From IMG/VR virus record IMGVR_UViG_3300027806_000040: a DNA stretch of 64,000 nucleotides, one strand, 5' to 3'. The notes under the pieces were generated by a model. It saw nothing but the letters and a program-made list of their open reading frames with translations, did not search any database and was not told the origin of the DNA. Source of the stretch: an uncultured virus (IMG/VR IMGVR_UViG_3300027806_000040). Its lineage: Duplodnaviria; Heunggongvirae; Uroviricota; Caudoviricetes. A program made the translations under genes and the position numbers. How positions within the stretch are numbered: position 1 is the stretch's first letter; each line of letters begins with the position of its first letter. Positions 10,146 through 59,123 of this stretch are shown piece by piece.

Positions 10146-11243
10146 ATGGCGACTCAGCAAATCGAGTTTTCGGCGGCAACTGGATTGACTCTTACGGCTA
10201 CGCTGCACGCGGCAGGCTCGGACGCGATTGCCTACACGGCTTCCGCAGTTGTCGAGCAAACCAACCGCAAAGGGGTGTACCGTGCGACGTTTGCCGGCAT
10301 TGCCGCAGGGACTTATCAGCTAGTCGCCTTTTCTGGTTCGACTCCCGTCGCCGTTTGGTGGGGGTTCGCTCAAGACACGGCAAGTACGTTTGTCTTTGGG
10401 GAAATCTCAGGTAGCCTCATCGCAAATTCAATCAACTCATCGACGTTTGCCAGCGGTACAAGTGTTGGCGCAAATGTGCTGTCAATCTCCGGCGCCTCAG
10501 CCGCAACCATCGCAGACGAAGTGCGGGTGGAACTGGCGACCGAACTTGCCAGAATCGACGTGGCGACTTCAACGCGGCTGGCGACTGCCGGTTACACTGC
10601 TCCAGACAATGCGTCGATTGCAGACATTGAAACTAAGGTTGATACACTTCTTGGACGGATTACTGCAAATCTGTTCACAGGTATCACGTACTTGCGTAAC
10701 TGGTTAAGTGCTTTGGCTGGAAAGAATCCAGATCCGGGCACCCGAGCCGAAATCAATGCCACAACTGCTGGTGCAACGTATAACGAAACAACTGATAGCT
10801 TGGAAGCAATTACTGGGCTATCAGGGTTGTCCGAAGTGGATGCTAATCTTGTTGCAATCAACGGACAACCAATTTCGGCAGGACAACTCCGCCTCAACGT
10901 CATTAACACAAACGTGCTTAAGAACAGCGTGTTGACGTTGATGCGGAAAGACACGTACTCGGTGGACAATGGCAATCCCATCGATTTTGTAAGTGATGAC
11001 CTTCCTGATATGACGATTGCAACTGGGGCGACTTTGACAATTATGTCTAAGGCTCGCGTAGTGTTGCTTACTAAGTCGGGAACTGTGTCAGAAGTTGCAA
11101 AGCGTATTCGTTTCGAACTTACCGAAGCCAATACAACGCTTGTTGTAGCTAATGATAATCGCTACGATGTTGTTCTCAACTACGCTACAGGGCACCAAAC
11201 AGTGTTCTCTGGCATCAACGTGATTCTGGACGACTGGTCATAG
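10146..11243 (+). CDS. Mosaic structural protein (Ig-like N-terminus; C-terminal domain paralogous to 11252..11962)
   Basis: LTLMRKDTYSVDNGNPIDF vs LTLTRGDTYSIANGNPIEF in the next gene. Confidence 0.65.
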   Translation: MATQQIEFSAATGLTLTATLHAAGSDAIAYTASAVVEQTNRKGVYRATFAGIAAGTYQLVAFSGSTPVAVWWGFAQDTASTFVFGEISGSLIANSINSSTFASGTSVGANVLSISGASAATIADEVRVELATELARIDVATSTRLATAGYTAPDNASIADIETKVDTLLGRITANLFTGITYLRNWLSALAGKNPDPGTRAEINATTAGATYNETTDSLEAITGLSGLSEVDANLVAINGQPISAGQLRLNVINTNVLKNSVLTLMRKDTYSVDNGNPIDFVSDDLPDMTIATGATLTIMSKARVVLLTKSGTVSEVAKRIRFELTEANTTLVVANDNRYDVVLNYATGHQTVFSGINVILDDWS

Positions 11244-11251
11244 GAGCAAGT

Positions 11252-11962
11252 ATGCTTAAGAACACAGCCGGCCAGAACTGGGTCGTCCATGCGATTGATA
11301 CTACGACTGGCAATAACAAGACAGGCGATGCTGCAAACATTACCGCCAAAATATCAAAAGATGGCGGAGCGTTTGTAGCATTGACTGATACTAACCCCGT
11401 TGAAATTGAAGCAGGCCGCTATGCTTTTGATATCAGTCAAGCTGAAATCAATTGCACACGGTTTTTCATTGTGCCGAGAAGTTCAACCGCAAATGTTCGA
11501 GTGGAGAATGAAGAAAAGGTCTTTACTACTGTTCCTCCAATCCCGGAAGTGAATGTAGTCGAAGTCAACGGCAAAGATGCAGCGAGCGGCATTGTACGGA
11601 TAAATATAATCGACGCAAGCTACGTTCGAAAAGGTGTTCTCACGCTCACCCGGGGTGATACTTACTCTATTGCAAACGGGAACCCAATTGAGTTCATTTC
11701 GACCGAGTTTCCTGACTTAACAGTTCCAACTGGAGCCACGCTCAAACTGTTCAATAAAACAACGAGAACAACGCTTCTAACAAAGACAACAACTTTGTTG
11801 GACGATGTTGAGAAAAGTATCAAGTTTGAAGCGACTGCTGCAGATATGAACATTGCTATCAATGATAAGGACTATGTTTACTCTGTTGAGTTAACGTGCG
11901 CCATAGGTAAACGAACAGTAATCTCCGACAAGTTGATCATTAACGACGATTTGGTGCCGTAA
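11252..11962 (+). CDS. Structural protein with BppU-like C-terminal domain
   Basis: GGAG RBS; TGDAANITAKISKDGG.F...TDTNP motif; RGDT...IEF beta-sandwich. Confidence 0.6.
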   Translation: MLKNTAGQNWVVHAIDTTTGNNKTGDAANITAKISKDGGAFVALTDTNPVEIEAGRYAFDISQAEINCTRFFIVPRSSTANVRVENEEKVFTTVPPIPEVNVVEVNGKDAASGIVRINIIDASYVRKGVLTLTRGDTYSIANGNPIEFISTEFPDLTVPTGATLKLFNKTTRTTLLTKTTTLLDDVEKSIKFEATAADMNIAINDKDYVYSVELTCAIGKRTVISDKLIINDDLVP

Positions 11963-13614
11963 TGCACGCACTTGAAAAATTGATGCGAGAGCAAATCGTA
12001 ACAGGGCTTCGACAAAATTTGAAGATTCCCTGTCACGAATGGGTTGCTCGACACAGAATGATGGGTGATCCGTTTCCCGGCCCGTTCGGGTACAAGTATC
12101 ATCCGTGGTTGTATGAGATGCACGATGTTTCAGCCGAAGAAGTGGTTGGGCAGAAGGCGGCTCAGATGGGTTATACAGAGTGGGCAATTAACGTCTCTCT
12201 GTATCATATTAACTATGGCAAGAGTGTACTTTACATTCTGCCGTCTTCATCGGACGCAGGCGATTTTTCATCGGCTCGCTTCGACGCAGCACTCGACTTG
12301 AGTCCGTATCTTGCTCAATTGTTTGTTGACGTTAATAACGTTCGACTGAAACGAACTAAGGCAGCTTCGCTTTATATTCGCGGATCGCGAAGTCGAGCTA
12401 AGTTGAAATCTATTCCGGCCCCAATCATCGTATTGGACGAAATGGATGAAATGTCCGAAGAAGCGATTAACCTTGTGGCTGAACGCCAGTCTGGGCAAGT
12501 ATTTGCATTAACGTTGAAACTATCAACGCCTTCGATTGAGGACTTCGGAATAAATGCAGATTACAAGTTATCGACTCAAAATCTATATTTCTTTCGGTGT
12601 CCCGGTTGTTCTCGTTACATCAATTTGGAGTATCCAAGGAATTTCAAACTTCTGGGCGAAAGCCTGCTTGACCCAAAGCTGCAAGAAAGTTATTTCTATT
12701 GTCACGAATGTGGGAGACGAATTGACTCTAAGGAAAAACCAGAAGTATTGAAGCATAAAGCCTTCGGGGGTACTGGACATTTTGTCCCGACGTATCCGGG
12801 ACGCCTCAAAGAAGGGTTTATGATACATCAAATGTATTCCATGTCGCGATCAGGTCGAGAAGACATTTTTGCGGCAGCGGCGATGAAAGCTGAATTTGAT
12901 GCAACGTATGCCCAAGAGTTTTGGAACAGCAAAGTCGCTCAACCTTATACGGCTCGTGGTGCGAAAGTAAGCGACGATCAGATACAACAATGTATCCAAC
13001 ATTATTCACAAGGTGTAGGGGACAAACGAAGCGTTAGAACAATCGGCATTGACGTAGGTTTGCAGTTTCATGTTGTTATTTACGAATGGAAATTAGGGCA
13101 AACATACGCAGATGTGATGCTCAACGACGTTAGTGTGCCAACGGTATTGTTACAAACAACTGTAAGGGATGAATCCGAACTTTTAAGATTGTGGCGAGAG
13201 TACCAAATTGATTGGGGTATCATCGACGCAGAACCAGAACGCCGAATTTCTTTGCGATTGTGCCAAGAACTTGGTGGAGGTTTAATGGCTTGCGATTATT
13301 TGTTCAGCCAGCAAGGTAAGACCGTTACTCGTCAAGATGACGATCTAATGGTCAAGGTTAATCGAACAGCTTGGCTAGACCAAACAATGTTTCGGTACAA
13401 AAATGGCACGATTCGACTTCCAATTGATATCGACGAAGAATTTAAGCTTCATATTAAGGAGCCTGTACGTATAACTCGACGCGACAAATGGGGACAAGAG
13501 TATGGTGTGTATGTTAACAAGAAAGCAGACCACTATGCTCACGCAAGCACTTACGCAGAGTTGGCGTTGACTTTGCTAGAATTGGGAGAAGTTCAAACTA
13601 TCAAGGTCTACTGA
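11962..13614 (+). CDS. terL: Terminase large subunit (lambda GpA family)
   Basis: KAAQMGYTE Walker A, IVLDEMD Walker B, STP motif, CPGC/CHECG zinc finger, IGIDVG and ADHYAHA nuclease motifs. Confidence 0.92.
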   Translation: MHALEKLMREQIVTGLRQNLKIPCHEWVARHRMMGDPFPGPFGYKYHPWLYEMHDVSAEEVVGQKAAQMGYTEWAINVSLYHINYGKSVLYILPSSSDAGDFSSARFDAALDLSPYLAQLFVDVNNVRLKRTKAASLYIRGSRSRAKLKSIPAPIIVLDEMDEMSEEAINLVAERQSGQVFALTLKLSTPSIEDFGINADYKLSTQNLYFFRCPGCSRYINLEYPRNFKLLGESLLDPKLQESYFYCHECGRRIDSKEKPEVLKHKAFGGTGHFVPTYPGRLKEGFMIHQMYSMSRSGREDIFAAAAMKAEFDATYAQEFWNSKVAQPYTARGAKVSDDQIQQCIQHYSQGVGDKRSVRTIGIDVGLQFHVVIYEWKLGQTYADVMLNDVSVPTVLLQTTVRDESELLRLWREYQIDWGIIDAEPERRISLRLCQELGGGLMACDYLFSQQGKTVTRQDDDLMVKVNRTAWLDQTMFRYKNGTIRLPIDIDEEFKLHIKEPVRITRRDKWGQEYGVYVNKKADHYAHASTYAELALTLLELGEVQTIKVY

Positions 13615-15269: not shown

Positions 15270-15715
15270 TGTACGGAACACTTGTTGACTCGAATACTTA
15301 TTTCAGCACATTGAGGTACGATCGTCAAGCCATTTGGGCCAATAGCTCAGAGGCAGCACGGACAGCTTGTCTGGGAGAAGCAACGAACCTCATTGATATG
15401 CTCAACTTCGAAGGTGATAAGACCGACGAAGAACAAGAGCTAGAGTTCCCACGCGATGGTGATACCGAGGTTCCAACTCCTATCATTCACGCTGCATACG
15501 AGATTGCCTACCAAATCTTGTCCGGTCGTGATGTTGATATCGAGCTTGAGAACGTCGAGAAAGTAGCGGTAGCCTTTGGGCAACGCCGCGTTGATAAGGA
15601 AAAGAGCTTCGTCTCGGAAGCTAAGACCAACGGTATTCCAAGTGAACGTGCTTGGAAACTTCTCAAACCTTTTTTGCGCGACCCGCACAAAGTAAAAATC
15701 ATTAGGAGTACGTGA
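15269..15715 (+). CDS. Head-tail adaptor-like ('DnaT-like' phage family) protein
   Basis: Y.T......YF...AT..ID...F.G.K....Q.LEFPR...VP..I..A..E.A pattern. Confidence 0.65.
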   Translation: MYGTLVDSNTYFSTLRYDRQAIWANSSEAARTACLGEATNLIDMLNFEGDKTDEEQELEFPRDGDTEVPTPIIHAAYEIAYQILSGRDVDIELENVEKVAVAFGQRRVDKEKSFVSEAKTNGIPSERAWKLLKPFLRDPHKVKIIRST

Positions 15716-17900: not shown

Positions 17901-17917
17901 TTGAAAAGGAACGGGAA

Positions 17918-19265: not shown

Positions 19266-19281
19266 CTTTTCAAGGTGTACC

Positions 19282-19806: not shown

Positions 19807-19937
19807 ACTTAACGCCTCCCGGTGTTAAGAAAGAGTGGGACAACAACGATTGGTGGACGCAACAATTGATACTTGCTTACTGTTACGGTCGTGACGTGGA
19901 GGACATGAAACTTGCTGTCAGCAAAGCGGGCTTTTGA
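19710..19937 (+). CDS. -1 frameshift extension of tail chaperone (gpGT-like)
   Basis: -1 frame is open from the slip site to TGA 19935-19937: FYSTAAPTG...YRIWRSCERLNLTPPGVKKEWDNNDWWTQQLILAY... Confidence 0.7.
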   Translation, partial: KFYSTAAPTGIAPVLGDSRTHQYRIWRSCERLNLTPPGVKKEWDNNDWWTQQLILAYCYGRDVEDMKLAVSKAGF

Positions 19938-30940: not shown

Positions 30941-31587
30941 AGAGTTGGCAACCTTTTGTTGAGGGAGAAGTTTTCAATCATTTTCTTGTAGACCATTGCC
31001 GTGATACGTGCATCGTAGTACGCATCGTGCAATGATCCGTCGTCCACATCCAACCCAAGACGCTTGGCTACCGCTGATAACCGAATCGTGTGCGGGAAAG
31101 GAATAGACGAAGTATCAAAGTCTGCAATATCATTGATGCTGGATGCAAGGGCCATGCTGCAACGATACTGATGGAAGAAGTATTCTTCGAACAATTGTGT
31201 CCCGAACCAACGAAGCAAGAAGGCACGGTCAAAGACCCAGTTATGGGCCAATGGTGCAATTTTCTTACCTTGCGGTAGCTCAAGCCGTTCAATCCAGTTG
31301 CACACGATATCAAATGCCTTATCAGCAGGTATGCCGTGTTCAAGGATATCAAGCCACCGTTGACCGCCAATGGCTCGAATCGCTCCATCCTCAGCCATAT
31401 CAGGCCGGTTCGGACGAATCAAGATATCAAGCGGCGTAACGCCTGGCAACGGGTCTAGCGTTGCAGTGAGTGGCACGATAGCAATTTGTACCAACTCATG
31501 CACTTCGGGGTCAAGTCCCGTGGTTTCTACGTCAAGGGAACAAATTTGGTTCCCGTTGAGATGGATGAAAGTTCTTTTAACTGTCAT
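30937..31587 (-). CDS. DEDDh 3'-5' exonuclease (DnaQ-like)
   Basis: LDVETTGL, AHN..FD..FL, HDAYYDA. Confidence 0.9.
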   Translation of the reverse strand: MTVKRTFIHLNGNQICSLDVETTGLDPEVHELVQIAIVPLTATLDPLPGVTPLDILIRPNRPDMAEDGAIRAIGGQRWLDILEHGIPADKAFDIVCNWIERLELPQGKKIAPLAHNWVFDRAFLLRWFGTQLFEEYFFHQYRCSMALASSINDIADFDTSSIPFPHTIRLSAVAKRLGLDVDDGSLHDAYYDARITAMVYKKMIENFSLNKRLPTL

Positions 31588-32407
31588 ATTTGATCCAAAT
31601 ACTCTCCGTATCAAGAGGTACTGCACCTGTAGGTGTAGATGCGATCCGTACATTCCAGTTGTAACGTTCATTCCAAAACGAACAACTATCAATGTGAGGG
31701 CAAGGTCGATGCGATAGAATCACTCGTCCTTTGCACTCACTTATCAATGATAACAACTTCTTATGTTCCTCCAGTCCCCACCCATGAGCGTACCCATCTT
31801 GACCTTCATCCAGATAAGGCGGGTCAAGATAGAGAACAGTATCAGGACTATCAAAGTCTTTGATACATTGGAAACAGTCAAGATTCTCAATGAGAAACGA
31901 TTTGAAGCGGTGTGATACTGACTCAAATACTTTGAGAGCAGTATCAATCCGGTTCAAAGGCGTGGTCTGACGAGCAAACGTCGTACCGATTTGACTGAAT
32001 GATACTCGAACATGGTAGAACCATTTGGCCGCACGGACAATAGGATCAGTTTCCGTGACCCATTCTCGCCGTGCATTGGTCCATTCTTCACGGGACCAAG
32101 GGTGCATTTGGTTAATGTAGGCTTCGAGGTCGGATCGTCTGTCCCGTAAGACACGGTAAAAGTCAATCAGGCCACTGTTCCTATCATTGTAAATCTTCAT
32201 TTTACAATCGGGAACGTTCAATGATACCACACCCGTTCCACCAAACACATCAACCCAAGTGCTTTTGGGTGTGATACCCAAGCGAGGGAGAATGTATGGT
32301 AGCGAGTCAACCTTTGATCCCGGAAACGAAATTGGTGCCTTTACTATCACCGTGCGTTCTGGTTCAGTATCAGTAACATCCATGAAAAGATTAAATAACT
32401 CGTTCAT
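31577..32407 (-). CDS. dam: DNA adenine methyltransferase (Dam/D12 class; target unknown)
   Basis: PISFPGSK, VDVFGGTG, YNDRN, YLDPPY. Confidence 0.9.
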   Translation of the reverse strand: MNELFNLFMDVTDTEPERTVIVKAPISFPGSKVDSLPYILPRLGITPKSTWVDVFGGTGVVSLNVPDCKMKIYNDRNSGLIDFYRVLRDRRSDLEAYINQMHPWSREEWTNARREWVTETDPIVRAAKWFYHVRVSFSQIGTTFARQTTPLNRIDTALKVFESVSHRFKSFLIENLDCFQCIKDFDSPDTVLYLDPPYLDEGQDGYAHGWGLEEHKKLLSLISECKGRVILSHRPCPHIDSCSFWNERYNWNVRIASTPTGAVPLDTESIWIKYDS

Positions 32408-35079
32408 GCTATCCTCAAGTATTCATTGACACAGATCAACGGTGCAGACGGTTCTGCATTTTGGTCAAAGGACATATTACCCCAACACCATGTAGCTCCC
32501 TTGGTCGAACGTCCTTTCACGAACTGACTGGGCATGTGCTTTGATACTTTGGCCTTGGTCCACACGTAACGTTCAGCCGGTTCGAGCCACTCAAGATACT
32601 TGTTGTAGAAGTCCTCAAGTGTAACAGTTGACCCAGGAACATGGTAACACTGTTCCCGAATGAACGCTTCAAGTCTCGTTTGATTCGCCTCTTGAGCCAT
32701 CTGTTTATCAGCGGTCAACAAGGCTGGAAGCATCAAACGCTCGGTTGATTCGGGCAACTTGAGTTGCATCAAAGCACCGAGGAAGTCTGGAGCTTCCATA
32801 TCAAGCAGAGAAAAGAGCGTACGTTTCGGGATTTGTTGTTCCGGAGCGTTCTCAACATGTATCATAGTGATACGAGTATCACCCGGAAAGATTGGGCAGT
32901 ACGTCCGACTGTTGCAACAATGCACCCAATGCGATGTGTTTGGGGCCGTATACGGCGTACAACGCTTGTGATGAATTGATAACGTCGGACTTGTGACCCA
33001 ATCCTTGATTCGATTGTACGCATTTTTGTTATCTTGCAGGTTTCTTTCTTCGATTACGCACAAGATAGCTCCCTCAAGTTCGCCTGTAAACCCACCTGAG
33101 TTGGTCAATGCGTTCTCAGCGAACACAAAACCCGGCGAAAAGAGCGTATACAACGACTCATGGAACATACTTTTTCCCGTATTTTGGTTCTCACCATAGA
33201 TGAAAAGATACGGTAACGGCTCAAACGGGAACTGAAACATTGATGCGATCCAACACATCAAGTAATCTTCGCCCGTCTTGACGCCATTTGTTCGGCACCA
33301 TTCATTCTCATGAACGTATGCATCCACGCCTTTGCCGACGTGTTGTAAGATACGTCGCCATGTTGGGAATGATAAATTCGGGTCCATCTTCGGTTTGTAC
33401 TTGAGTTGCGGAGCCGATTTGTTCCACAATCGTCCACCGGGGTACTCAGGTTCAAAGGGCCGAACAACAAGTTTCCACGGTTTCAAAACAGAGGAGCCGA
33501 TGATAGTTTTGACCTCCCCATCCTTGATCCCCATAGACTCAAGAGCCGACTTAACGTGAACCATAGGTTCGTTGATCCAAGCTCCGTTTGAGGCAATAGA
33601 CCAACCAGCATTTTGGCCTCCGTCAGTAACGATATGACGAATGATATCATCGTAGTTACCGATTTCAACTTCCGTTTCAGAGCTACCTGTACGGGTATTA
33701 AGTTGAAAAACCTTGAGCCACATCTTACCTTTGTCGAGCCAACCTTGAATTGGTTGGTCCGTGGACTCACGCGGAATCTCAACAATCACTTTTCCGGGAC
33801 TCTTTTTCGTATTGACCCGCCCGATCCGGTGCCGAAGTAGTGCGGGAATTGATACTTGCAGCCCTAGCCGCATAAAAGCATCGGCCAATTGTTGGGAGGT
33901 TGGGAAATTGTAGTTACCCTTTTCATCCTCCAATGATCCAAACATCGCTGCGACGGTCTGGAAATCGGCCTCACGATTGAAGAAACATCGTGTCCAACCC
34001 TTACCATCTTGTACCCATGATGCATGTTCTTCTACGCCAAGTGTGTAGCGTCGTACGCTCCATGCACCGTTACGCATCGGGTACGCGAAACAATTTTGTT
34101 CGTTCAAGTTTGTTGCTGGACTGTTCGTATCGAATACGCCTCGCATATCAAGGCTTTCGTGAGCCTCTTTCAAGTGTCTCGTATGCGTCACGAGCATGTG
34201 GGTATCAGCGTCCCACCAGAAAAACTTATCATTTTCAGCCATCCAAGCCAACAACTTACGGTGTTCTTGGTCGAGCGTGATATTCTGTTTCTGGTTTGCA
34301 AGCTCGTCAAAACGTGTCAACGATTCGTCTGTTGACAACGGAGCATGACGTACACGCTTACGCTCACCTGTAACAACATCACAATGATCACGCCAGTTAT
34401 CAGGGATATCATACAAAGGTTCTCCCTGCTTGATAATTGTGAATCCATCTTCGGCCTGCTTCCTTGCCCACACCCACATGTTACCGCCGCATACGTCCAC
34501 CTTCGCTTGCAGGTCAATACCTGTTGTGCATGATAGTTTGGCGAGGATCGCACGGGCCAACGCTGCATGTTGCGTATGATTTGATACAATAGGCGACTCA
34601 CCAATGAACACATACAAGTGCAAGCCGCGTCCAGACGTTGAACGTCGCAACGTTACCCACGGCACTTGTGTCACACGTTCACGCAACTCGGACAACTCAC
34701 GTGTGTCCAACTTCTTTTGATGCTTGGAACTGTGTCCCATGATAGCATCAAAGTCAAACGCTACCCACCGAGACTTGAGTTCTTTCCAGTCCCAGCCAGT
34801 CATACCGATTGCATCAAAGTGATCAACACTGAATGTCAAGTCGGGATTATCGTATGATGGACTGCTCTTGGCGTTGTGCGGAATACGGAAACTTTTCCAA
34901 GTAGTGATGCCATCCGAGTACCCAACCCAATTGATATTCTGGAACGTACCTTCAATACGCTCGCCACCGTCAGCAGCAACGTTTACTTGGCACTCCATTC
35001 CCGCATGATACAGAGATGCTAGGTCAGGGCGTGCCCGCATCTCTAAGAATCGTTTGATAGCCTCAGTCCGAGTTGCCAT
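32404..35079 (-). CDS. AEP primase-polymerase fused to SF3/D5-like helicase
   Basis: FDFD and STSGRGLHLY primase motifs; GENQNTGKS Walker A, VIEE Walker B, GDTR. Confidence 0.85.
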   Translation of the reverse strand: MATRTEAIKRFLEMRARPDLASLYHAGMECQVNVAADGGERIEGTFQNINWVGYSDGITTWKSFRIPHNAKSSPSYDNPDLTFSVDHFDAIGMTGWDWKELKSRWVAFDFDAIMGHSSKHQKKLDTRELSELRERVTQVPWVTLRRSTSGRGLHLYVFIGESPIVSNHTQHAALARAILAKLSCTTGIDLQAKVDVCGGNMWVWARKQAEDGFTIIKQGEPLYDIPDNWRDHCDVVTGERKRVRHAPLSTDESLTRFDELANQKQNITLDQEHRKLLAWMAENDKFFWWDADTHMLVTHTRHLKEAHESLDMRGVFDTNSPATNLNEQNCFAYPMRNGAWSVRRYTLGVEEHASWVQDGKGWTRCFFNREADFQTVAAMFGSLEDEKGNYNFPTSQQLADAFMRLGLQVSIPALLRHRIGRVNTKKSPGKVIVEIPRESTDQPIQGWLDKGKMWLKVFQLNTRTGSSETEVEIGNYDDIIRHIVTDGGQNAGWSIASNGAWINEPMVHVKSALESMGIKDGEVKTIIGSSVLKPWKLVVRPFEPEYPGGRLWNKSAPQLKYKPKMDPNLSFPTWRRILQHVGKGVDAYVHENEWCRTNGVKTGEDYLMCWIASMFQFPFEPLPYLFIYGENQNTGKSMFHESLYTLFSPGFVFAENALTNSGGFTGELEGAILCVIEERNLQDNKNAYNRIKDWVTSPTLSIHHKRCTPYTAPNTSHWVHCCNSRTYCPIFPGDTRITMIHVENAPEQQIPKRTLFSLLDMEAPDFLGALMQLKLPESTERLMLPALLTADKQMAQEANQTRLEAFIREQCYHVPGSTVTLEDFYNKYLEWLEPAERYVWTKAKVSKHMPSQFVKGRSTKGATWCWGNMSFDQNAEPSAPLICVNEYLRIA

Positions 35080-35125
35080 GATATGATACCTTTGTTTGTT
35101 GGTTAAAATCGACACTTCCCGCAAT

Positions 35126-35182: not shown

Positions 35183-35518
35183 CGTTCACAAACGCGGGGA
35201 AAATGGCCGTTTCGCTCTAATGCCACAGAATAGGCCCTAGAATCGACGATCGCCATTAAACGTCCGAACATACCAACCGCCCGCCGAACGCCCGCCAGCC
35301 GGCCAGCCAGCCCGTAGAATCGACGCCTAAGCCTACCGGCTCCCGGCAGGGTGAAACCGGGAATAACGTCAACCCTGTAACAACCCCTATTCTATGTTAT
35401 TAAGTTTGGAAAATAGATTTTCTAAGGGTATACGCTCCCTAATGTTAGTTGTTATTTGTTATTCCAAGTTGGCAGTATCAGTATCCTTAGTATCATATCA
35501 TAGAAACTTTATTTTCCG

Positions 35519-35550
35519 GTGAATAAAACCGGCTCTCAACACGTTAGTAT
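35519..35550 (+). promoter_or_regulatory. ECF-like promoter facing the parB/replication operon
   Basis: GTGAAT-N16-ACGTTAGTAT; same 10-mer as at 35126 (minus strand) and 56154. Confidence 0.55.
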
Positions 35551-35679
35551 GTTGAAATGGCGATCAGGTCGATTCTCACCCGTTGAGTATCGTATCATGA
35601 GAACCGGGTAAAACCAGTATCATGGTGAGACTGGTTCAGTAAGTCTGGGTTCCGGCCCTTTTATCATGGAGAATTTGCT

Positions 35680-36699
35680 ATGTCCAATTCTGCGACCGCA
35701 GAAGCTCCTGCTATTCAGCAGGAAAGTATCAAGGTTACTGGCGACGTGAAGATGATTTCGACTGCCAAGGTTGTGCCGTCGAAGATCGCCCTTCGCGGAG
35801 TCAAGGACCAAACCGAGGAGTTCCAAAACCTGCTCAACAGTATTCGTCTGCACGGTATCATGAACAGCATCACTGTTCGTGAACTGCCGGATGGTACTTA
35901 CGGTCTGGTTGACGGTCTGCAACGTTTCACTTGTGCCCAACGCTTGGGCATGGAAACTGTTCCGGCCCGTATCATGGCGATGGACGATGCTGAGACTTTG
36001 AAGGCTCAGATCATCACCAACGTTCACCGCGTCAAGCAACGCCCTGCCGAAGTCGCACAACACCTGTTGCGTATCTTGAGCTTGGACCCGCTGCTGACTG
36101 TGAACGAACTGGCTCGCCAGATGGCTCAGTCACCAGCGTGGGTCGAACAGCAACTCGACCTCAACAACCTGTTGCCGGAAGCAAAGGTTGCGGTTGATAA
36201 CGGTTCGCTGAACCTGAGTTCGGCCTACATGCTCTCAAAGCTGCCTCTGGACCGCCAGAAGGACGAGTTCGAGAACGCATTGAAGGAACCGTCGCTCCAG
36301 TTCGTCGCTCGGATGCGGGAAGTCGTCAAGAAGATTCGTGACGACAAGAACGCTGGCCGTGATAGCGGCAAGATCGAATGGCGTCCGCCTGTCCACCTGC
36401 GTCCTTTCGCTTCCGTCGAGACGGAATACAAGGCGATTCTGGATGGCAAGGAATCCACCGTCCTCAAGATGCTGGAAGCCGAAGGCGTGAAGGTCACGGA
36501 GCAAGTCAAGCAAACCGCTCTCCGCGTTGTTGCTTGGGCTTTGCACCAAGATACTGCGACCAAGGAAGCTGCTCAAGCCGAGCATGACCGTCGCGTCAAG
36601 GCCAAGGAAGCTGAGAAGGCAGCACGTGAAGCTGAAAAGCAGAAGCAACGTGAAGCCAAGGCAGCCGAAGCCTCGACCTCCAAGACTATCTTCGAGTAG
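35680..36699 (+). CDS. parB: ParB/Spo0J-like protein 1
   Basis: SIRLHGIMNSITV, LVDGLQRF, TNVHR, HTH ELARQMAQSPAWV; GGAG RBS. Confidence 0.85.
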   Translation: MSNSATAEAPAIQQESIKVTGDVKMISTAKVVPSKIALRGVKDQTEEFQNLLNSIRLHGIMNSITVRELPDGTYGLVDGLQRFTCAQRLGMETVPARIMAMDDAETLKAQIITNVHRVKQRPAEVAQHLLRILSLDPLLTVNELARQMAQSPAWVEQQLDLNNLLPEAKVAVDNGSLNLSSAYMLSKLPLDRQKDEFENALKEPSLQFVARMREVVKKIRDDKNAGRDSGKIEWRPPVHLRPFASVETEYKAILDGKESTVLKMLEAEGVKVTEQVKQTALRVVAWALHQDTATKEAAQAEHDRRVKAKEAEKAAREAEKQKQREAKAAEASTSKTIFE

Positions 36700-37768: not shown

Positions 37769-39581
37769 GTGGATTGGACAGAAATACTACCGTGATATCG
37801 AGTGTACCGTTCGCGGTTCTCGCATCTCGGTCAAGTTCCCGTATGATAAGTTCCTACTCGATGCGGTCAAGACCTCGTTCGAGGGTCGCACGTGGGACAT
37901 GGAAAAGAAGGAATGGTCTTTTCCTATCACCCAACGCAACTTGTTTCAATTTGAATTGTTGCAAGGGAAATACGGACCAGAGCCAAAGACTAATTGGCCG
38001 GTCAACATTGAAATACAGAAAGAGGATATCGACGCGGTTATTGAAGGTCGCGGTATCACTCTCTACCAGCATCAATACGAAATCATCAGCCACATCCTAT
38101 TGAAGCGTCAGTTCCTTGTCGCGGCGGATATGGGTCTTGGCAAAACACTGTGTACTATCGTGGCAATGGAAATTCTTGCCGGTGATAGTAATCCTTACAT
38201 CTTGTGGGTCGGTCCCAAGGGGCCGTTGACCGCAGCAAGGTTGGAGTTTGCAAAGTGGCGTAGCCCTTTGCGACCAGAGTTCATGACGTATGATGCGCTT
38301 AGGATTGCGTTACAGAGGTGGGACCGACCCACTCCTCAAATTTTTGTCATGGATGAAATCTCTTGCTGCAAGACGGCGACCTCGCAACGTACCAAGGCTT
38401 GCCAGTACGTTGCGGACTCTATGCGTGACGAGAAAGTCCAGCCCATGATAGTTGGGTTGACTGGTACGCCCTCGCCAAAGACACCTGTTGACTGGTGGGC
38501 AGAGGTTGAGATCATTCGTCCCGGTTGGATCACTGAGAAGTCTCCCCGTGACTTACAGGCCCGTCTTGGCGTGTTGTCGGAGCATGATGATGGGATCACT
38601 AAGTTCAAGAAACTTGAAACGTGGAAAGATAGCACAGACAAATGCGATATCTGTGGTAAGACGGAGCAGGAACATGCAAACGCCCCTTGGGACTTCAACC
38701 ATCCGTATGTTGCCGGTTCGGATGAGGTATCAGCGTTTGGCAAACGGCTCCGTGGTCCGGTTGGAGTCTGGCTCAAGTCCGACTGTCTTGATTTGCCAGA
38801 GAAGCGTTACGAATGTATCCAGTTCGAGCCAACACAAGAAATACTATCATTGGCTCGTACCGTTGTCAACCGTACCAAACGTGCTGCGGATGCACTCATC
38901 AAGCTACGTACGCTGTCCGATGGCTTTCTCTATGAAGAAGTTGAAACGGGGTCCGAACCTTGCACGGAGTGCATCAATGGGCAGGTGAATATCAGCCCAG
39001 ATGAAATGGGACCGTGTGCCATTTGTTCCGGGTCTGGTCGTGCCCCAGTTATGACTCGCGTTACTAAGGAGTTCGCTTGTCCTAAGATTGACTTGTTGAT
39101 ACAATTGCTTTCCGAGCATGAGGAAGTTGGTCGCTTGTGCGTTTATGCAGGCTTCCAAGGTTCTGTGGATCGGATTCAAAAGGTTGGGTTACAACAGGGA
39201 TGGTCAGTGTTTAAGGCTGATGGTCGTGGGTGGTCATTCACAACTCACGAAGGCTTGATCCCAATGACTCAAGAAGCGATGGTCGAACGCTTCCAATCAA
39301 AGGATGATAGGATCATGTTCGTTGGACAACCGGGTGCAGCAGGTATGGGTCTCACCCTTACTGCTTCACCTACGACCTATTTCTACTCCAACGACTTCAA
39401 CCCACAGTCCCGGTTCCAAGCCGAGGATCGTATTCATCGTATTGGTATGGACGTTATTCGTGGCGGTCGTATCATTGATGTTATTCATCTGCCCTCAGAT
39501 GAAAAGGTAATTAACAGCCTTGTTAATAGTCGTAATCTACAAAGTATCACAATGGACGAATTGAGAGGCTACTATGTATAA
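37722..39581 (+). CDS. SNF2-family helicase with Zn-finger insertions
   Basis: DMGLGKT, MDEIS, LTGTP, GMGLTL, QAEDRIHRIG. Confidence 0.9.
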   Translation: MPSTSTLLRQEKFTVKWIGQKYYRDIECTVRGSRISVKFPYDKFLLDAVKTSFEGRTWDMEKKEWSFPITQRNLFQFELLQGKYGPEPKTNWPVNIEIQKEDIDAVIEGRGITLYQHQYEIISHILLKRQFLVAADMGLGKTLCTIVAMEILAGDSNPYILWVGPKGPLTAARLEFAKWRSPLRPEFMTYDALRIALQRWDRPTPQIFVMDEISCCKTATSQRTKACQYVADSMRDEKVQPMIVGLTGTPSPKTPVDWWAEVEIIRPGWITEKSPRDLQARLGVLSEHDDGITKFKKLETWKDSTDKCDICGKTEQEHANAPWDFNHPYVAGSDEVSAFGKRLRGPVGVWLKSDCLDLPEKRYECIQFEPTQEILSLARTVVNRTKRAADALIKLRTLSDGFLYEEVETGSEPCTECINGQVNISPDEMGPCAICSGSGRAPVMTRVTKEFACPKIDLLIQLLSEHEEVGRLCVYAGFQGSVDRIQKVGLQQGWSVFKADGRGWSFTTHEGLIPMTQEAMVERFQSKDDRIMFVGQPGAAGMGLTLTASPTTYFYSNDFNPQSRFQAEDRIHRIGMDVIRGGRIIDVIHLPSDEKVINSLVNSRNLQSITMDELRGYYV

Positions 39582-40515
39582 GAACGTTCCACTTAACGAA
39601 ATTTACTTGGACCATGAGTTCAATTGTCGCGGAAGATTTCTTCCAATTGATTGTGTCGAGTTGGCACGTTCAATACAGGAGATTGGCCTTCAACAACCTA
39701 TCACGGTACGGGAACTGCGTGCAGAAGCCAGTCCCGGTCGTGTTGGCGAAGCAGACTTGATAGCCAAGGGCTACAAGTACAAAGTCATCACCGGACACCG
39801 ACGCTTCACGGCTTGCAAGATCAACAAAGCTGAGACGGTTGAAGCTAAGATTCTTCCGGCTGATACTTACGATGCAGCTTGCGAGGATGCCAACCTTGTT
39901 GAGAACATTCAACGGGCCGACTTGACAATTGAACAAGAGGCCAAGGCTCTCAAGCGGTACGTCAATCGTGGCGAGTCTGCCCAAGCGATTGCGGATCGGT
40001 TGGGTATGTCCAACGGTTGGGTGCGAACCCGTGTGATGTTGCTCGACTTGCCGGACGAAGTGCAAACGTTGGCAGGGAAAGGCTTCATCAATCAAAATGA
40101 TATTCGGGAGCTTCATCGCCACCGTGTATCAGACCGACGGGTGATCGAACTTGCAGCCAAGTTGAGGGATGCACGTATCAACCACCAGAAGGCCAGTGTT
40201 GATCGTCTTGTGAAGAACAAGCCAGTATCAAAGAAAGAGAAAAAGGAACGTGGTCCTAACGCCGTTTCTGATTTGATGGAACAGGTTCGTTCTCTTTTCT
40301 GCTCCATCAACAGGGACATTTCAATCCCTGTCCATGATTGGGTATCAGCCGAAGGAAACAGTATCGTGACAGCGGTACTGGCATGGTCAGGAGGATTCAT
40401 CAACAATGACGAACTTTGGGATCGAATTGAGCAATTTGGAAGCACTTTCGGTGTACGAGTCGAGCGGCCCGTTTTCGCCGAGGATGAACAGACTGTTGCT
40501 GGAATCGCTAGTTAA
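39574..40515 (+). CDS. parB: ParB/Spo0J-like protein 2
   Basis: SIQEIGLQQPITV, ITGHRRF, ENIQRADL, HTH AIADRLGMSNGWV. Confidence 0.9.
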   Translation: MYKNVPLNEIYLDHEFNCRGRFLPIDCVELARSIQEIGLQQPITVRELRAEASPGRVGEADLIAKGYKYKVITGHRRFTACKINKAETVEAKILPADTYDAACEDANLVENIQRADLTIEQEAKALKRYVNRGESAQAIADRLGMSNGWVRTRVMLLDLPDEVQTLAGKGFINQNDIRELHRHRVSDRRVIELAAKLRDARINHQKASVDRLVKNKPVSKKEKKERGPNAVSDLMEQVRSLFCSINRDISIPVHDWVSAEGNSIVTAVLAWSGGFINNDELWDRIEQFGSTFGVRVERPVFAEDEQTVAGIAS

Positions 40516-47573: not shown

Positions 47574-47583
47574 GGACTGTATC

Positions 47584-54578: not shown

Positions 54579-54661
54579 GGAGAACAGACCGACAAGCAAA
54601 AGTATCGTATCATGCCGATTTTAGTTTTTGACGATTTTCACCATTCCAAAGGAAAAGTATC

Positions 54662-55798
54662 ATGACGAAGAAAAACGCAACCAAGACGACCGAAACCCAC
54701 GCCGAGATCACTTGGCTGCCCGTGAGCGAAGTTTACACGGCGACGAAAAACGGCCAGTTTGCCGACAATCTCGGACGCCTAAGCATCGACGATCAAGGGA
54801 TTGCAACCTTGGTCGCTTCCATGCTGAAAGCAGCCGAATCCGGCGAGCCTTACCGCTTTTCGGCAGGACCGATCAACGTAGTTTCGGACCCCGCCACCCC
54901 TTCCAGTTTCGACTACTTCCCAGAATTGATAGTCAAAACGCCCAAAGGGGACACTGGCGACAACGAAAAGGAACAATGGACCGAACACAAGGTAGATCGT
55001 GCATCCCTTGTCAAAAAGTGGAGCGAACGCAGCCCCGGTTACCGGGCGATCGACGGCCAACGACGAACGATCGCGGCCTTTATTGCATCGGTGATACTTG
55101 GGCGAGATTTTCTGCTCCCCTGCGTCGTGCAAACCAACTCGGCAGACTCACTTGAGCGAGTACGCCAGAACGCCCGATCGGGACAACGTGACTACAGCAA
55201 GCAAGAACTGGCATATGCCACCTGCGAGCTGTTTACACGCAAACCGACCGCCACTATGGGCGATATCGCGTCGCTGTTTAACTGGACAACGATCGCCAGT
55301 AGCAGCGGCAAACCGATCCCAGAACGTAACGGGGAACGGCAGCACCTTCTCGCCATTGGGCGGCTTCATTCCCGCAATCCGGGCTTGAAAATCAAGGACC
55401 GGCTTGCCTTGCCGCCAACCGATCCGGATTACATTGACGCAAAGGCCCTCACCCGTGACGCCCTGCCCTTCGTTCTGCAAACGAAGGAAATCAAGGATGC
55501 TGCCGGTAATGACTTCGTTCAGAAGGTAATCGCTCCGATTGCTGGCGAGTATCATCCGGACGCAGACGGACGATTCAGCGAGGAACAAATTGACGGAATC
55601 ATCCGCCAGATGCAGAACGGCAGCAAACCGAAGGCGACTACCATCGCCCCGGACAAGTGGCGAGCGATCGTAAACAATATGCCCGCCGGGTGTCTGCCTG
55701 CCATGATAGCGGCCGCTCACCTTGCAGGCGATGAAACCCGATTGCTTGATGCATTGGCAGCCGTGACCGCATTGGAGAACGCCGCCAAGATCAAATAG
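54662..55798 (+). CDS. Divergent ParB/Srx-fold protein 3 (DGQRR motif)
   Basis: AIDGQRRTIA, N..R near the N-terminus, RQN...RDYS, HTH-like ATMGDIASLF. Confidence 0.65.
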   Translation: MTKKNATKTTETHAEITWLPVSEVYTATKNGQFADNLGRLSIDDQGIATLVASMLKAAESGEPYRFSAGPINVVSDPATPSSFDYFPELIVKTPKGDTGDNEKEQWTEHKVDRASLVKKWSERSPGYRAIDGQRRTIAAFIASVILGRDFLLPCVVQTNSADSLERVRQNARSGQRDYSKQELAYATCELFTRKPTATMGDIASLFNWTTIASSSGKPIPERNGERQHLLAIGRLHSRNPGLKIKDRLALPPTDPDYIDAKALTRDALPFVLQTKEIKDAAGNDFVQKVIAPIAGEYHPDADGRFSEEQIDGIIRQMQNGSKPKATTIAPDKWRAIVNNMPAGCLPAMIAAAHLAGDETRLLDALAAVTALENAAKIK

Positions 55799-56106: not shown

Positions 56107-56207
56107 ATTCACGTATTTGGTACGAAAAGTATGAACTATTTTTTCGACTTGTGACGTTAGTATAGTGGAAGGCCTCCCATCACAGTTTTGGTACGAAAAA
56201 CATGAAT
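56107..56207 (+). promoter_or_regulatory. Box + ECF-like promoter + second box over the terS start
   Basis: Box 56107-56136, N17, ACGTTAGTAT 56154-56163; box 56178-56207 overlaps ATG 56202. Confidence 0.65.
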
Positions 56208-56789
56208 CGCCAGTTATACGAAGCAGAGCCGCATGATGATATGCGGTGCAAAGGAGCCGGGACAGGTGCCGAAGGGCAATGCCGGTATCTTTCGATGAAA
56301 GGTATGATTCGTGAAGGTTTCTTGGAAGATGAACCAAGCAATCATCAAGACTATTGCCCAAAGCATGGTAAGACCCGTGCAATGGCTCAACAAAAGAAAG
56401 AGTATCATGACTACCTTTCTGGGGTGTGGCAATTAGAGCTTGAGAAATTTGCTTCCTCAGACAAAGTTAAGTCACTTCGCGGCGAACTTGGTGTCTTGCG
56501 TCTTTTGGTTCAAAAGACCTTGGAAAAGTGCCAAACGTCAGATGACTTGCTCATGTATTCGACCAAGCTATCATCCTTGGCGATGCAGATTGAGAAGCTC
56601 GTTGTGTCGTGCGACAAGCTCGAAGTCAGAATGGGTGAACTGTTGACCCGTGAGGTTGCACTCAATTTTGCTTCCTCTATCATTGCAATCCTGCAAGAAC
56701 AAATCAAAGACGAAATGGTCATTGACCAAATTGCCACCAAGATACTTGCGTCCTTCAAAGATATGTCCAATAAGGAGTTGACACTGTGA
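56202..56789 (+). CDS. Putative terminase small subunit
   Basis: RC......GQC...YCPKHG Zn motif, SLRGELGVLR coiled coil; heads the late operon. Confidence 0.55.
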   Translation: MNRQLYEAEPHDDMRCKGAGTGAEGQCRYLSMKGMIREGFLEDEPSNHQDYCPKHGKTRAMAQQKKEYHDYLSGVWQLELEKFASSDKVKSLRGELGVLRLLVQKTLEKCQTSDDLLMYSTKLSSLAMQIEKLVVSCDKLEVRMGELLTREVALNFASSIIAILQEQIKDEMVIDQIATKILASFKDMSNKELTL

Positions 56790-57037: not shown

Positions 57038-57039
57038 TC

Positions 57040-57741: not shown

Positions 57742-57742
57742 G

Positions 57743-58747
57743 ATGTCAATGTTCGGCTGGGGACTCCCGTCCCAAACACTCCAAGAGAAAATTGATGCAG
57801 AACGTCGGGAACGGGAAGCCTTGGAGCTTCTTGTTCCTGACCGTATGTGTCACCATGATAATCGGGCCGTTGCGAATGACCAATTGCTGGCTGAAGTCAA
57901 GCAGATTCAACAAGCCAACGGTATTGATGATGGCTTCTGCTTCTTGTACCTCATTGAAGCAATCTGGGGTTTCCAGTTCGAGTGGCTCCCACAACTCATT
58001 GGTTCGTGTGTCGCGTCCGGTGATATGCGAACGACTGCCTACCGCATGGCGGCGGAGGTTTTTCTGCTCAATCAACCGGAGAGTATCTTCGGTGATAAAA
58101 TTGTTGGACCAATGAACCTTGCTCCTTTCGCTCCGTACAATTACCGTATGGGTCGAGATGCAGCAGGGATCAACGGTTCCAGTGACGGCTCGCTGTGTCT
58201 ACCACACATCAAAGGGAAGATGAAGTACGGTCATCTCCCTTGCTCTACTCCTGGACTTGTAAGCGACGCCTTTCCGGAACCGCAAGACATGCCTCTCTAC
58301 CGTCGCTGGGGAGCAGGCAACACGCTGGCCAGTCAGTATCATTCTGTCGCCAGCCAATATGTGTTGGAAGAATCGGAGAATGTCAAGACTGTTGATACTG
58401 GCATCACTCTGATCAATCAGTTTAAGCCACAGAACAATTGTTCAGGTTTCGCTTTCAAGAAGCGAGGCCCGATTCCTGGTTGGAAGCTAGCCGATGGGTC
58501 ACAAGTTGACCTCTGGACAATTGATCCAGCCAACTCATGGCAACATAACATGAGTATCATTGGGTATGTGACCGTTAAGGGCACAATGTACGAGATTTGG
58601 GAAAACTCATGGGGCAAGTATCACAGCAACCGCCGTTGGTTCCCAATTTCGATGGACGATGCCGCTCGCGTAGTTGCTCGCTCGGAACGACAATCCGTTG
58701 GCGAAATGAATCTCACGAACACTGGACCAGCATGGCCGGAGGAATAA
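57743..58747 (+). CDS. Papain-like (C1) cysteine protease
   Basis: QLIGSCVA, WQHNMSIIGY, WENSWG catalytic motifs. Confidence 0.82.
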   Translation: MSMFGWGLPSQTLQEKIDAERREREALELLVPDRMCHHDNRAVANDQLLAEVKQIQQANGIDDGFCFLYLIEAIWGFQFEWLPQLIGSCVASGDMRTTAYRMAAEVFLLNQPESIFGDKIVGPMNLAPFAPYNYRMGRDAAGINGSSDGSLCLPHIKGKMKYGHLPCSTPGLVSDAFPEPQDMPLYRRWGAGNTLASQYHSVASQYVLEESENVKTVDTGITLINQFKPQNNCSGFAFKKRGPIPGWKLADGSQVDLWTIDPANSWQHNMSIIGYVTVKGTMYEIWENSWGKYHSNRRWFPISMDDAARVVARSERQSVGEMNLTNTGPAWPEE

Positions 58748-58748
58748 C

Positions 58749-59123
58749 ATGGAAGATGGTTGGGCAAAGTGGTTGGAAAATCAAGGCCCATTATGGGTCA
58801 TTTATTCCCTAACAATTGTTGGAATTGTAACACTTGTACGTCAATTATTCAAATATTTGCCGATTTTATTTGACAAACATTTGGCTTTACTCGAACGGAC
58901 AACTGATTCAGTATCAAAGTCGTCGGAAGCCATTGTGAAACTAACTGCGGCAGTAGAAGATAATACTTTTGAAGTGAATCGACAACAAATTCACATCTCT
59001 GATGCTGCCAGACCTTTCGCCAAGGCAATGGTTGCAATGGCCAATGCTGAAAGTAAAGACGATGTTCGTCAACACTTGAACGAAATGGAAAATATTCTGT
59101 CTCGAATGAAGAATGTAAATTAG
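58749..59123 (+). CDS. Holin-like single-TM coiled-coil protein
   Basis: GGAGG RBS; N-terminal TM GPLWVIYSLTIVGIVTLV then coiled coil. Confidence 0.5.
   Translation: MEDGWAKWLENQGPLWVIYSLTIVGIVTLVRQLFKYLPILFDKHLALLERTTDSVSKSSEAIVKLTAAVEDNTFEVNRQQIHISDAARPFAKAMVAMANAESKDDVRQHLNEMENILSRMKNVN

Follow-up and report, generated by a model that had tools for sequence, protein, structure and literature searches.

The 64,000-nt stretch of DNA analysed here (the window), the IMG/VR record IMGVR_UViG_3300027806_000040 of an uncultured virus, carries the hexamer GTATCA and its complement TGATAC so often that it raises two questions: is the word kept there by selection, and does a phage protein read it? 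Counting both strands, we found 162 copies in the window (99 on the plus strand and 63 on the minus strand) compared with 22.69 expected from 100 dinucleotide-preserving shuffles (standard deviation 4.88, largest value 34), which confirmed that the enrichment is real and strong. Nearly all of these copies, 157, fall in the core of one phage, which we call phage B (10601–59200), where 25.6 are expected and the density reaches 3.23 per kb versus 0.53 per kb. The flanks are near chance or empty, with 0 copies versus 2.8 in region 1–7772, 1 (at 8386) versus 1.2 in region 7773–10600, and 4 versus 2.0 in region 59201–64000. The first-pass annotation of this DNA had put the density at about 3 per kb versus about 0.5 per kb, confined to phage B with a lone site in 1–10.6 kb, and its hand counts proved accurate: we counted 21 sites in 30361–35124, 53 in 10.6–30.4 kb and 104 in 30.4–59.1 kb.

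The fuller form of the word is aGTATCAw, with A preferred ahead of G and A or T past the last A. The observed and expected counts are 366 and 106 for TATCA, 81 and 6.6 for AGTATCA, and 34 and 1.7 for AGTATCAA, and exchanging any single base within TATCA lowers the 12-fold enrichment of AGTATCA to 0.3–2.7-fold. The sites are solitary and Poisson-spaced (coefficient of variation of the gaps, 0.99), and a search for a preferred pair (dimer) spacing in phage B gave none. A maximal-order Markov model absorbs the enrichment by k = 5, and the enrichment is additive over positions. Two known signatures were considered and set aside. The depleted one-mismatch neighbors AGTATTA and AGTATAA (0.3-fold) contain stop triplets and are therefore uninformative on a Vsr-like repair process, and the sequence logo 3' of TATCAA lacks the T-rich positions 4–6 nt downstream that an IHF-like extended consensus would call for.

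The excess is written into coding sequence at the level of DNA. The 146 sites within coding sequences (CDS) compare with 31.9 ± 5.2 when synonymous codons are reshuffled and the proteins kept (200 shuffles, maximum 45, z = 22) and with 24.0 ± 4.9 after shuffling of the codon order (z = 25). Even under a very restrictive null, a synonymous swap that also freezes the dinucleotides at codon junctions, only 83.7 ± 7.2 are expected (30 runs, z = 8.6). Because the excess persists under these codon-preserving nulls, it is not refuted by the test that the first-pass annotation had named for that purpose. In coding-strand frames 0, 1 and 2, GTATCA occurs 29, 41 and 22 times and TGATAC 0, 15 and 39 times, the zero class being the one whose frame would turn TGA into a stop codon. 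All five permitted combinations of frame and orientation are raised 3.4–10.8-fold (z from 8.8 to 15.3 in 300 shuffles keeping the proteins and the genome codon usage). The coding-strand ratio of 92:54 matches the 60:40 null fixed by the in-frame TGA stop (p = 0.45). Of 69 Val-Ser dipeptides, 29 are spelled GTATCA, 1 of 24 possible spellings; 39 of 68 Asp-Thr dipeptides lie within T-GAT-AC, and 15 of the 92 rare ATA codons are inside the word. The dipeptide frequencies themselves are nearly unchanged, with Tyr-His as the sole shift (z = 4). Pressure on the word thus works through codon choice and is mostly synonymous. The first-pass annotation had proposed a selected self-mark; the frames, the strand balance and the spelling of Val-Ser support the part of that proposal which makes the word a DNA-level, lineage-specific selected mark, and the mechanisms proposed with it are weighed separately below.

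The make-up of the window shows which DNA carries the mark. Phage B has a siphovirus-type genome with a GpA-type terminase, a portal, a P22-type coat protein and a tape measure. Its minus-strand block encodes a MazG-like protein, an exonuclease, a Dam-family methyltransferase and a P4-family primase-helicase, and beyond this block lie two ParB-family proteins, a SNF2/HARP-like helicase, a family A polymerase, a VRR-NUC protein, a ligase and nucleotide-pool enzymes. A Kelch-repeat gene at 8073–9512 has a second copy, 96–100% identical and shifted by 54,749 bp, from 62822 onward, and we read phage B as a closed unit of 54,749 bp (7773–62521) composed of a 48.6-kb core and a 6.1-kb tail-fiber cassette of higher GC content. 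The left part of the cassette holds the C-terminal part of a small gene, the Kelch-repeat gene and small open reading frames (ORFs); the right part holds a 1000-aa fiber gene (59231–62233), a 192-aa gene and the second Kelch-repeat copy. Gene order in relatives (described below) fits the closed-unit reading, as the homologue of 56202–56789 lies 0–4 kb upstream of the terminase in G003–G006 and, across the closure, 9.9 kb upstream of it in phage B, 6.1 kb of which is the cassette.

Region 1–7772 is read as another, co-occurring phage (phage A) that was mis-joined to phage B here via the shared cassette. At least half of the short sequence words sampled for this phage are present in 13 public runs. 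When the assembled contigs of four public runs, none of them marked as a potential source of the window, were mapped on 1–20000, the two sides differed in abundance up to 4-fold: the depth over 1–4.6 kb versus that of phage B was about 44 versus about 10 in run X10 and about 150 versus 114 in run X9. In X9 the shared gene was present at roughly the summed abundance of the two phages, and contigs from three runs diverge from the window at 9521. An IMG/VR contig identical to 8839–50438 crosses the left junction; it may share the same assembly and is therefore not independent evidence. The two-gene core of the cassette (the small gene and the Kelch-repeat gene) occurs in at least 40 viral contigs with GC contents of 0.32–0.70 that share no other gene with phage B, and the cassette is a probable, very mobile receptor-binding module. 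The word stands at 0–1.9-fold in 46 of 47 Kelch-cassette contigs, the 47th (L138) being a stretch of the identical contig. The cassette was recently imported and is unmarked, and the word is a property of the long-resident DNA of the lineage.

Relatives of phage B were sought to see the word in a wider context. A blastn search of a phage collection gave no close relative, single-protein scans of IMG/VR and JGI metagenomes gave identical contigs only, plus one fragment at 50% identity, and a host search returned eight matches in a genome collection, all of them phage contigs binned into metagenome-assembled genomes of unrelated phyla. Distant relatives were retrieved from IMG/VR, with terminases 38–47% identical and genomes of 65–130 kb; 19 of them, whole or nearly whole, together with phage B form a set of 20 family genomes. 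Co-occurrence of the word in related phages, a check suggested earlier, had a split outcome. GTATCA is not generally conserved in the family, but about 12 of the 20 genomes, phage B included, carry a dispersed 7-mer of their own at 5–14-fold, with genome bins filled as by a Poisson process. These private words are AGTATCA in phage B, ATATCAA/GATATCA in G004, AAGATTA in G005 and G016, CGAAAGC in G006, CTAATAG in G012, TAAATCA(A) in G024 and G025, AAAGCTT in G023, AGCTTCA in G019, CAATCAA in G003, and CAAGATC in G007. The other eight (G008, G011, G013, G014, G015, G017, G020 and G021, the last at 4.8-fold) have no clear private word or only clumped repeats.

To calibrate this signal, the best dispersed 7-mer was determined in 15-kb pieces, 34 from the family and 17 from control phages. 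Its z lies at 5.6–9.7 in 29 of the family pieces and at 6.2–10.6 in 15 of the control pieces; the outliers are L046, L024, L041, L022 and L079 (z from 11 to 21), and the three pieces of phage B reach z of 15, 22 and 21. Among the controls, one phage stood out as well (L119/L120, z from 12 to 14), with a weak signal on its whole genome. G029, the lone control phage with a private word, shows only 4–5-fold enrichment of ATCGAT/GATCGA and encodes a ParB-like protein without a helix-turn-helix (HTH) domain, and it was not used as support. The top words of L021, L064, L050, L038, G011, G014 and G020 are clumped longer repeats and were left out of the private-word count. The seemingly strongest private word, ACATATGT in L047/G003 (66 copies versus 0.8 expected), was rejected because its copies form a local array within the final 4 kb of the contig. 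This array, 33 copies of the 8-bp palindrome at C1:108001–111971 beside the terminase of a 112-kb relative, is possibly related to packaging.

In several relatives the sites are paired into inverted repeats, which we call full sites. G004 has 42 copies of TGATA-N4-TATCA (consensus TTGATAC-NN-GTATCAA) where 0.5 are expected per spacing, and TGATTT-N3-AAATCA occurs 50 times in G024 and 60 times in G025 (there as TTGATTTA-S-TAAATCAA), with 0.1 expected per spacing in each. GATTG-N2/3-CAATC is present in 14 + 19 copies in G003 (1.1 expected per spacing) and TGTTA-N4-TAACA in 12 copies in G021 (0.9 expected per spacing); G008 has about 15 dispersed dyad sites despite the lack of a clear private word. 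One arm of the G004 palindrome is exactly the word of phage B, and G004 carries 328 solitary half-sites in addition. All dyads of the family share one inward orientation, and a GAT/ATC core is common to many of the words. Non-coding DNA, 8–10% of the genome, holds 28–36% of the full sites in G004, G024 and G025, the remainder being intragenic, and phage B, G005, G016, G006 and G012 have essentially solitary half-sites only. A de novo scan of three unrelated control genomes revealed no recurrent palindrome above shuffle level. The low-copy palindromes of G005, G007, G011, G016 and G019 either form local arrays or sit at the ends of the genomes and were not counted as the same system. Local clusters of four to five long dyads in G011 (C1:53231–53460, CCATGATAAATTTATCATGG type) and G005 (C1:33355–33670, TGACAATTTTTGTCA type) are likely origins or operator arrays, separate from the dispersed words. 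A dyad with 7-bp arms points to a dimeric protein acting on double-stranded DNA (dsDNA).

These full sites bear directly on the possibility that the word is the target of a DNA modification enzyme, either the Dam-family methyltransferase of phage B or an unrecognized hypermodification enzyme, and has been multiplied by selection for dense protection from host nucleases. The methyltransferase gene has the highest site density in phage B, and the MazG-like protein, an HD-domain dNMP phosphatase and a dATP/dGTP diphosphohydrolase-like domain are of types often found beside modified DNA. Phage T-dioxygenases described in 2026 act after replication, with sequence preferences and a need for a ParB-like activator (PMC13229309), which would suit such a scheme. 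However, the ParB activators described there lack a DNA-binding domain, which the ParB proteins of phage B possess. Strong words occur in G004, G012, G024 and G025 without the D12-class methyltransferase, and G008, G015 and G020 encode this enzyme but show no clear word; GATC, the usual Dam-family target, is at expectation in phage B (177 versus 189); and none of the scanned ORFs showed a TET/JBP, glycosyltransferase or TGT-type domain. Since the relatives' dyads of 15–17 bp exceed the length of a D12 methyltransferase site and enzyme and word do not co-occur across relatives, the Dam-class target suggested in the first-pass annotation is disfavored, and we regard modification in general as quite unlikely to be the reason for the word.

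The placement of the sites in phage B shows both a genome-wide spread and a local concentration. Although 91% of the sites are intragenic, non-coding DNA (2.4 kb in total) carries them at 5.9 per kb and coding DNA at 3.1 per kb, and among genes the density ranges from 0.7 per kb in the capsid gene to 10.8 per kb in the methyltransferase gene. The 555-bp gap between the divergent primase and ParB1 genes contains four GTATCA sites, and three overlapping 500-bp windows starting at 35390–35490 each contain six same-strand sites; the tandem cluster found there (Table 1) is a candidate nucleation or operator region. The trio of sites noted earlier at 32859–32881 is present and resolves into one palindromic full site, the only dyad of its own word in phage B (at 32868), and an extra half-site. 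GTATC stands directly 5' of the ATG in 3 of 59 gene models (47584, 51579 and 54662; 0.14 expected, Poisson p = 4e-4), and a fourth start proposed earlier, at 47370, has no counterpart in the gene models. The word may serve at gene starts at these junctions (47579–47586, 51574–51581 and 54657–54664), and the ATG at 51579 overlaps the upstream stop codon (ATGA).

Table 1. Features of the window, with coordinates in the numbering of the 64,000-nt stretch
Feature	Coordinates	Strand	Details
Part of a different, co-occurring phage (A), as read here	1..7772	.	0 GTATCA; differing depth; CTAAA at normal rate
Left part of the imported tail-fiber cassette of phage B	7773..10600	.	higher GC; word at chance
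Resident core of phage B with enriched aGTATCAw	10640..58916	.	157 GTATCA/TGATAC + 366 TATCA/TGATA
Dam-family (D12-class) N6-adenine methyltransferase	31577..32407	-	9 sites, 10.8/kb, highest density
P4-family primase-helicase, 906 aa	32404..35124	-	phrog_1829; DUF5906; TIGR01613 C-terminal region below cut-off
Sole full palindrome of B's own half-site, TGATAC-GA-GTATCA, plus one adjoining half-site, within the primase gene	32859..32881	.	
Tandem same-strand word cluster in the divergent primase/ParB1 intergenic region	35470..35625	+	AGTATCAGTATC..AGTATCATATCA; GAGTATCGTATCA; CCAGTATCA
ParB1, ParB/Noc-family protein (ParB_N + HTH) with divergent nucleotide-binding motif DGLQR	35680..36699	+	PF02195, E 5.9e-15
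ParB2, canonical ParB/KorB-type protein (ParB_N, HTH_ParB and KorB domains; GHRRF motif)	39574..40515	+	PF02195, E 5.3e-8
Right part of the same cassette	59201..64000	.	word at chance; GCGC not avoided

Given a dimeric reader of dsDNA, the two ParB-family proteins are the candidates: they are the only recognizable sequence-specific dsDNA binders conserved in the family. In phmmer searches the best solved relatives of ParB1 are Noc, Spo0J and ParB, spanning the N-terminal and DNA-binding domains, and ParB1 and ParB2 alike match solved ParB, Noc, Spo0J and KorB structures in these two domains. The nucleotide-binding motif (GxxRxxA type) reads GHRRFTA in ParB2 and DGLQRFT, with a single arginine, in ParB1. 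Of the 19 family genomes set against phage B, 18 encode ParB1 and 18 encode ParB2, and a survey of 22 family contigs recovered ParB2 in 17, the other five being 37–59% complete. Pfam scans of 90 ORFs of phage B and its flanks revealed no other HTH family above threshold and no ParA-type family, and on that ground the arrangement does not qualify as a strict partition system. The placement of the sites resembles that of operators. In G004, G024 and G025, the distance from a full site to the downstream ParB1 start is 26, 52 and 62 nt, respectively; pairs or tandems of the own word lie upstream of ParB1 in phage B, G004, G005 and G003; and other full sites in relatives are upstream of the primase, p217 and ParB2 genes. 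As for a parS-like palindrome of about 16 bp by the parB gene, G004 has a 16-bp dyad and G024 and G025 have dyads of 15–17 bp, while phage B has the tandem half-sites and the one dyad at 32868. Two further proteins, p217 (Pam3_Gp34/DUF5895-like) and p262 (PD-(D/E)XK nuclease-like by language-model features only), were considered as sequence readers and are not such on present evidence.

We infer from these sequences that a protein binds the word. Our leading reading, which we hold tentatively, is that aGTATCAw is the half-site of a phage-encoded sequence-specific dsDNA-binding protein, most likely ParB1 or ParB2, that serves genome-wide occupancy; the reader is probably a dimeric HTH protein of ParB type, with ParB1 slightly favored over ParB2. 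Weak and mostly synonymous selection would have multiplied the word to about 160 strict (GTATCA) and about 370 core (TATCA) copies in long-resident DNA. In relatives, the same or a drifted word is paired into inverted repeats of 15–17 bp, like parS or a KorB operator, and phage B has mainly the solitary half-site, a form comparable to the half-parS sites bound by Pseudomonas aeruginosa ParB. Nucleation of the protein would take place at the tandem cluster 5' of its gene as well as at the dispersed sites, and in this way the entire phage genome would become occupied; this occupancy may serve genome-wide transcription control, compaction or positioning, or self-marking of the DNA. Low-affinity binding sites for a ParB-fold protein were one of three mechanisms offered in the first-pass annotation; as a putative mechanism it is the best supported of the three, through the relatives' 15–17 bp inverted repeats in 42–60 copies, the clusters upstream of ParB1 and the conservation of the two HTH proteins in the family.

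Several observations weigh against a ParB reader. The recognition helix does not follow the word clearly: the ParB2 helix SRGWVQIR is identical in G003, G005, G016, G023 and G015, genomes whose words differ or are lacking, and the ParB1 helix is ambiguous, since phage B and G004 share SPAWV and G024 and G025 share a site yet differ at four helix positions. No protein is closer between phage B and G004, which have a common word, than between phage B and G003 or G005. Both ParBs are present in G008, G013, G015, G017 and G020, which have no clear private word, and the control phage G029, though weak in signal, has a private word with only an HTH-less ParB N-terminal-domain protein. The scanned ORFs also lack a ParA. 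Canonical ParB sites are few and palindromic, and we know of no precedent for about 160 solitary intragenic half-sites of a phage ParB. By our own rough estimate, the placement upstream of ParB1 is only moderately unlikely to arise by chance over 15 gene families, at about 0.1.

Such observations leave room for another phage regulator as the reader, in a stoperator-like operator system with a small, fast-evolving repressor or sigma-like HTH protein missed by profiles. The dyads and the 3–4-fold non-coding excess suit a repressor, the co-variation of the ParB helices is weak or negative, many small ORFs of phage B have no assignment, and one at 49508–49924 shows a sub-threshold GerE/sigma-70-region-4-like match. 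However, this GerE-like ORF has no detectable homologue in G003–G006 even though the site series looks family-wide, and most sites are intragenic in both orientations, unlike the transcription-oriented stoperators described in PMC4351075. We consider a reader of this kind unlikely.

The tandem cluster also adjoins the primase gene, which suggests a different reader: the word could be the recognition or initiation site, or a dispersed iteron, of the P4-type primase-helicase, enriched to give a primase that reads a long sequence a site every 0.6–1.2 kb or so on each template strand. The 157 GTATCA sites over both strands of 48.6 kb correspond to a site roughly every 620 nt on each strand, and AGTATCA to one roughly every 1.2 kb; this spacing of 0.6–1.2 kb is the size of Okazaki fragments, and the founder primase of the P4 family binds origin iterons. 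Against this stand the inverted repeats of the relatives, which indicate a dimer on dsDNA rather than the reading of a single-stranded template, the orientation of the sites, which never switches along the genome beyond the effect of gene orientation, and the primase itself, whose helicase-like match ends at residue 858–870 of 906 and leaves no room for a C-terminal DNA-binding domain. We find it very improbable that the primase is the reader.

Two other words are strongly skewed in phage B. CTAAA/TTTAG is absent from its CDS where the protein-preserving null gives 45.3 ± 5.7 (minimum 31), and it occurs once in the core, at intergenic position 54620, where composition predicts 106. It occurs 0 times versus about 12 expected in the two cassette parts and 11 times versus 10 in 1–7772; the normal rate in 1–7772 and the lack in both cassette and core agree with the division between phages A and B. 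Relatives show 0.2–1.15-fold. This purge resembles the avoidance of an asymmetric 5-bp restriction or defense target, or of a phage nuclease target. GCGC is avoided about 20-fold in the core (8 versus 162; 9 versus 126 ± 10 in the CDS under the codon null) and about 6-fold in 1–7772 (8 versus 48), and the imported fiber region is at expectation (25 versus 25). Several relatives avoid it as well, with 0 versus 131 in G007, 16 versus 276 in G003, and 8 versus 125 in G012.

These skews and the composite nature of the window help to judge whether the word needs a reader at all. It could reflect a neutral mutation or repair bias of the lineage, or be imposed by the host as a Chi-like or other word. 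The enrichment is additive over positions, being absorbed by the Markov model at k = 5, the word is missing from recently acquired DNA, and it is lowest in the most constrained genes (capsid, 0.7 per kb), as a slow bias would give. A bias of this kind is difficult to reconcile, however, with the 12–20-fold excess of a 7–8-mer with sharp single-base specificity or with tandem and dyad arrangements at regulatory positions. In addition, the co-occurring phage A, which has the 96–100% identical cassette and GCGC avoidance, has no word; since phage A does not show the CTAAA purge of phage B, a shared host of the two is not established. Chi sites are also of a different appearance from this strand-symmetric, A+T-rich word. 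The Chi-like protection signal put forward in the first-pass annotation is disfavored accordingly, there being no strand asymmetry past the in-frame TGA effect and the relatives' sites being palindromic, and an origin of the word without any reader seems to us improbable to a high degree.

Some other genes deserve mention in their own right. A MazG/PRA-PH-like pyrophosphohydrolase, an HD-domain dNMP phosphatase-like protein and a dATP/dGTP diphosphohydrolase N-terminal-like domain (30530–30940, 45081–45638 and 45966–46406) are nucleotide-pool enzymes of types that often go with a replaced canonical base, and profile scans of the ORFs of phage B recognized no PurZ-type, TET/JBP or transferase genes. 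Two neighboring genes (50543–51034 and 51031–51582) encode pentapeptide-repeat proteins, some of which mimic DNA and act on gyrase. In phage A, 185–1030 encodes a protein of the phosphoadenosine-phosphosulfate-reductase family (phrog_424, E 8e-38), a family often tied to phage DNA modification, and this protein may account for the tolerance of phage A to CTAAA sites.

How does the word compare with known systems? The stoperators of Cluster A mycobacteriophages are about 13 bp long and occur in a few dozen copies, and the KorB and Noc proteins have far fewer sites per replicon than phage B has copies of its word. The first-pass annotation knew of no described phage system with this signature; this has to be qualified, as the Cluster O dyads and the Cluster A stoperators are described analogues (PMC4351075). 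Cluster O mycobacteriophages (the Corndog group) carry more than 30 copies, 34 in Corndog, of a 17-bp dyad with 7-bp arms and a short spacer; about one third are intragenic, the genomes encode a protein with a ParB-like domain, and the function is reported as unknown (PMC4351075). The relatives G004, G024 and G025 look alike in kind, with tens of dispersed inverted repeats, partly intragenic. In contrast, phage B has nearly all solitary half-sites, five- to ten-fold more of them and in all reading frames, and its family is unrelated, uncultured and from freshwater, with a word that drifts between members. Stoperators are asymmetric sites of one phage DNA-binding protein, spread genome-wide and oriented with transcription (PMC4351075; see also PMC6550527). 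Their repressor is known, whereas the word of phage B is 7 bp long, shows no orientation preference past the stop-codon effect and is 91% intragenic.

Outside phages, the ParB protein of P. aeruginosa binds half-parS sites, solitary heptanucleotides that number in the hundreds and each equal one arm of the palindrome (PMC5961200), just as the word of phage B is one arm of the G004 palindrome; that system belongs to a bacterial chromosome, and the parts of that paper covered here describe no codon-built genome-wide enrichment. The RK2 KorB operators and the Bacillus Noc sites are dispersed palindromes of ParB-family HTH proteins that act in long-range silencing or nucleoid organization without a segregation role (for KorB, PMC11790492). 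Searches with the ParBs of phage B place Noc and KorB among the best matches of solved structure, but the Noc and KorB sites are palindromic and on cellular or plasmid replicons, and no ParA, KorA or TrbA partner was recognized in phage B. A private word enriched family-wide despite low identity is also known as the nick motif of tf-like Pseudomonas phages, which has 9 bp and about 9–13 copies on one strand at one genome end (PMC11780129). The nick-type pattern (one strand, about 10 per genome) does not match the 157 evenly spread sites on both strands of phage B. Among open-access papers and bioRxiv, we found no description of a private heptamer enriched genome-wide in a phage, of a solitary half-site at about 3 per kb in all frames through codon choice, or of a drifting series of private words with and without dyads across one family.

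Dispersed private repeats are thus known in phages from Cluster O and from the stoperators, of which only the stoperators have been explained. Phage B represents the most extreme form, a solitary 7-bp word maintained at about 3 per kb purely by synonymous codon choice, and its family allows the paired form and the drift of the word to be traced from genome to genome. As a practical marker, the word splits long-resident DNA from recent imports, and here it exposed a mis-join of two phages. The finding bears on the role of orphan ParB-family proteins, which are common in lytic phages, and two named proteins and one word make that role testable. A bolder proposal, which we regard as somewhat unlikely, is that in this lytic freshwater family a ParB/Noc/KorB-type switch protein loads on hundreds of solitary 7-bp half-sites written in codons and thereby gives unmodified DNA a 'self' identity, with private words that drift quickly between lineages and fresh imports that are unmarked. 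Such a coat, if real, would organize or shield the genome through transcription timing, compaction, or the exclusion of host nucleases or silencers, and a reader that coats the genome would give a virus a new means of distinguishing its own DNA from that of its host.

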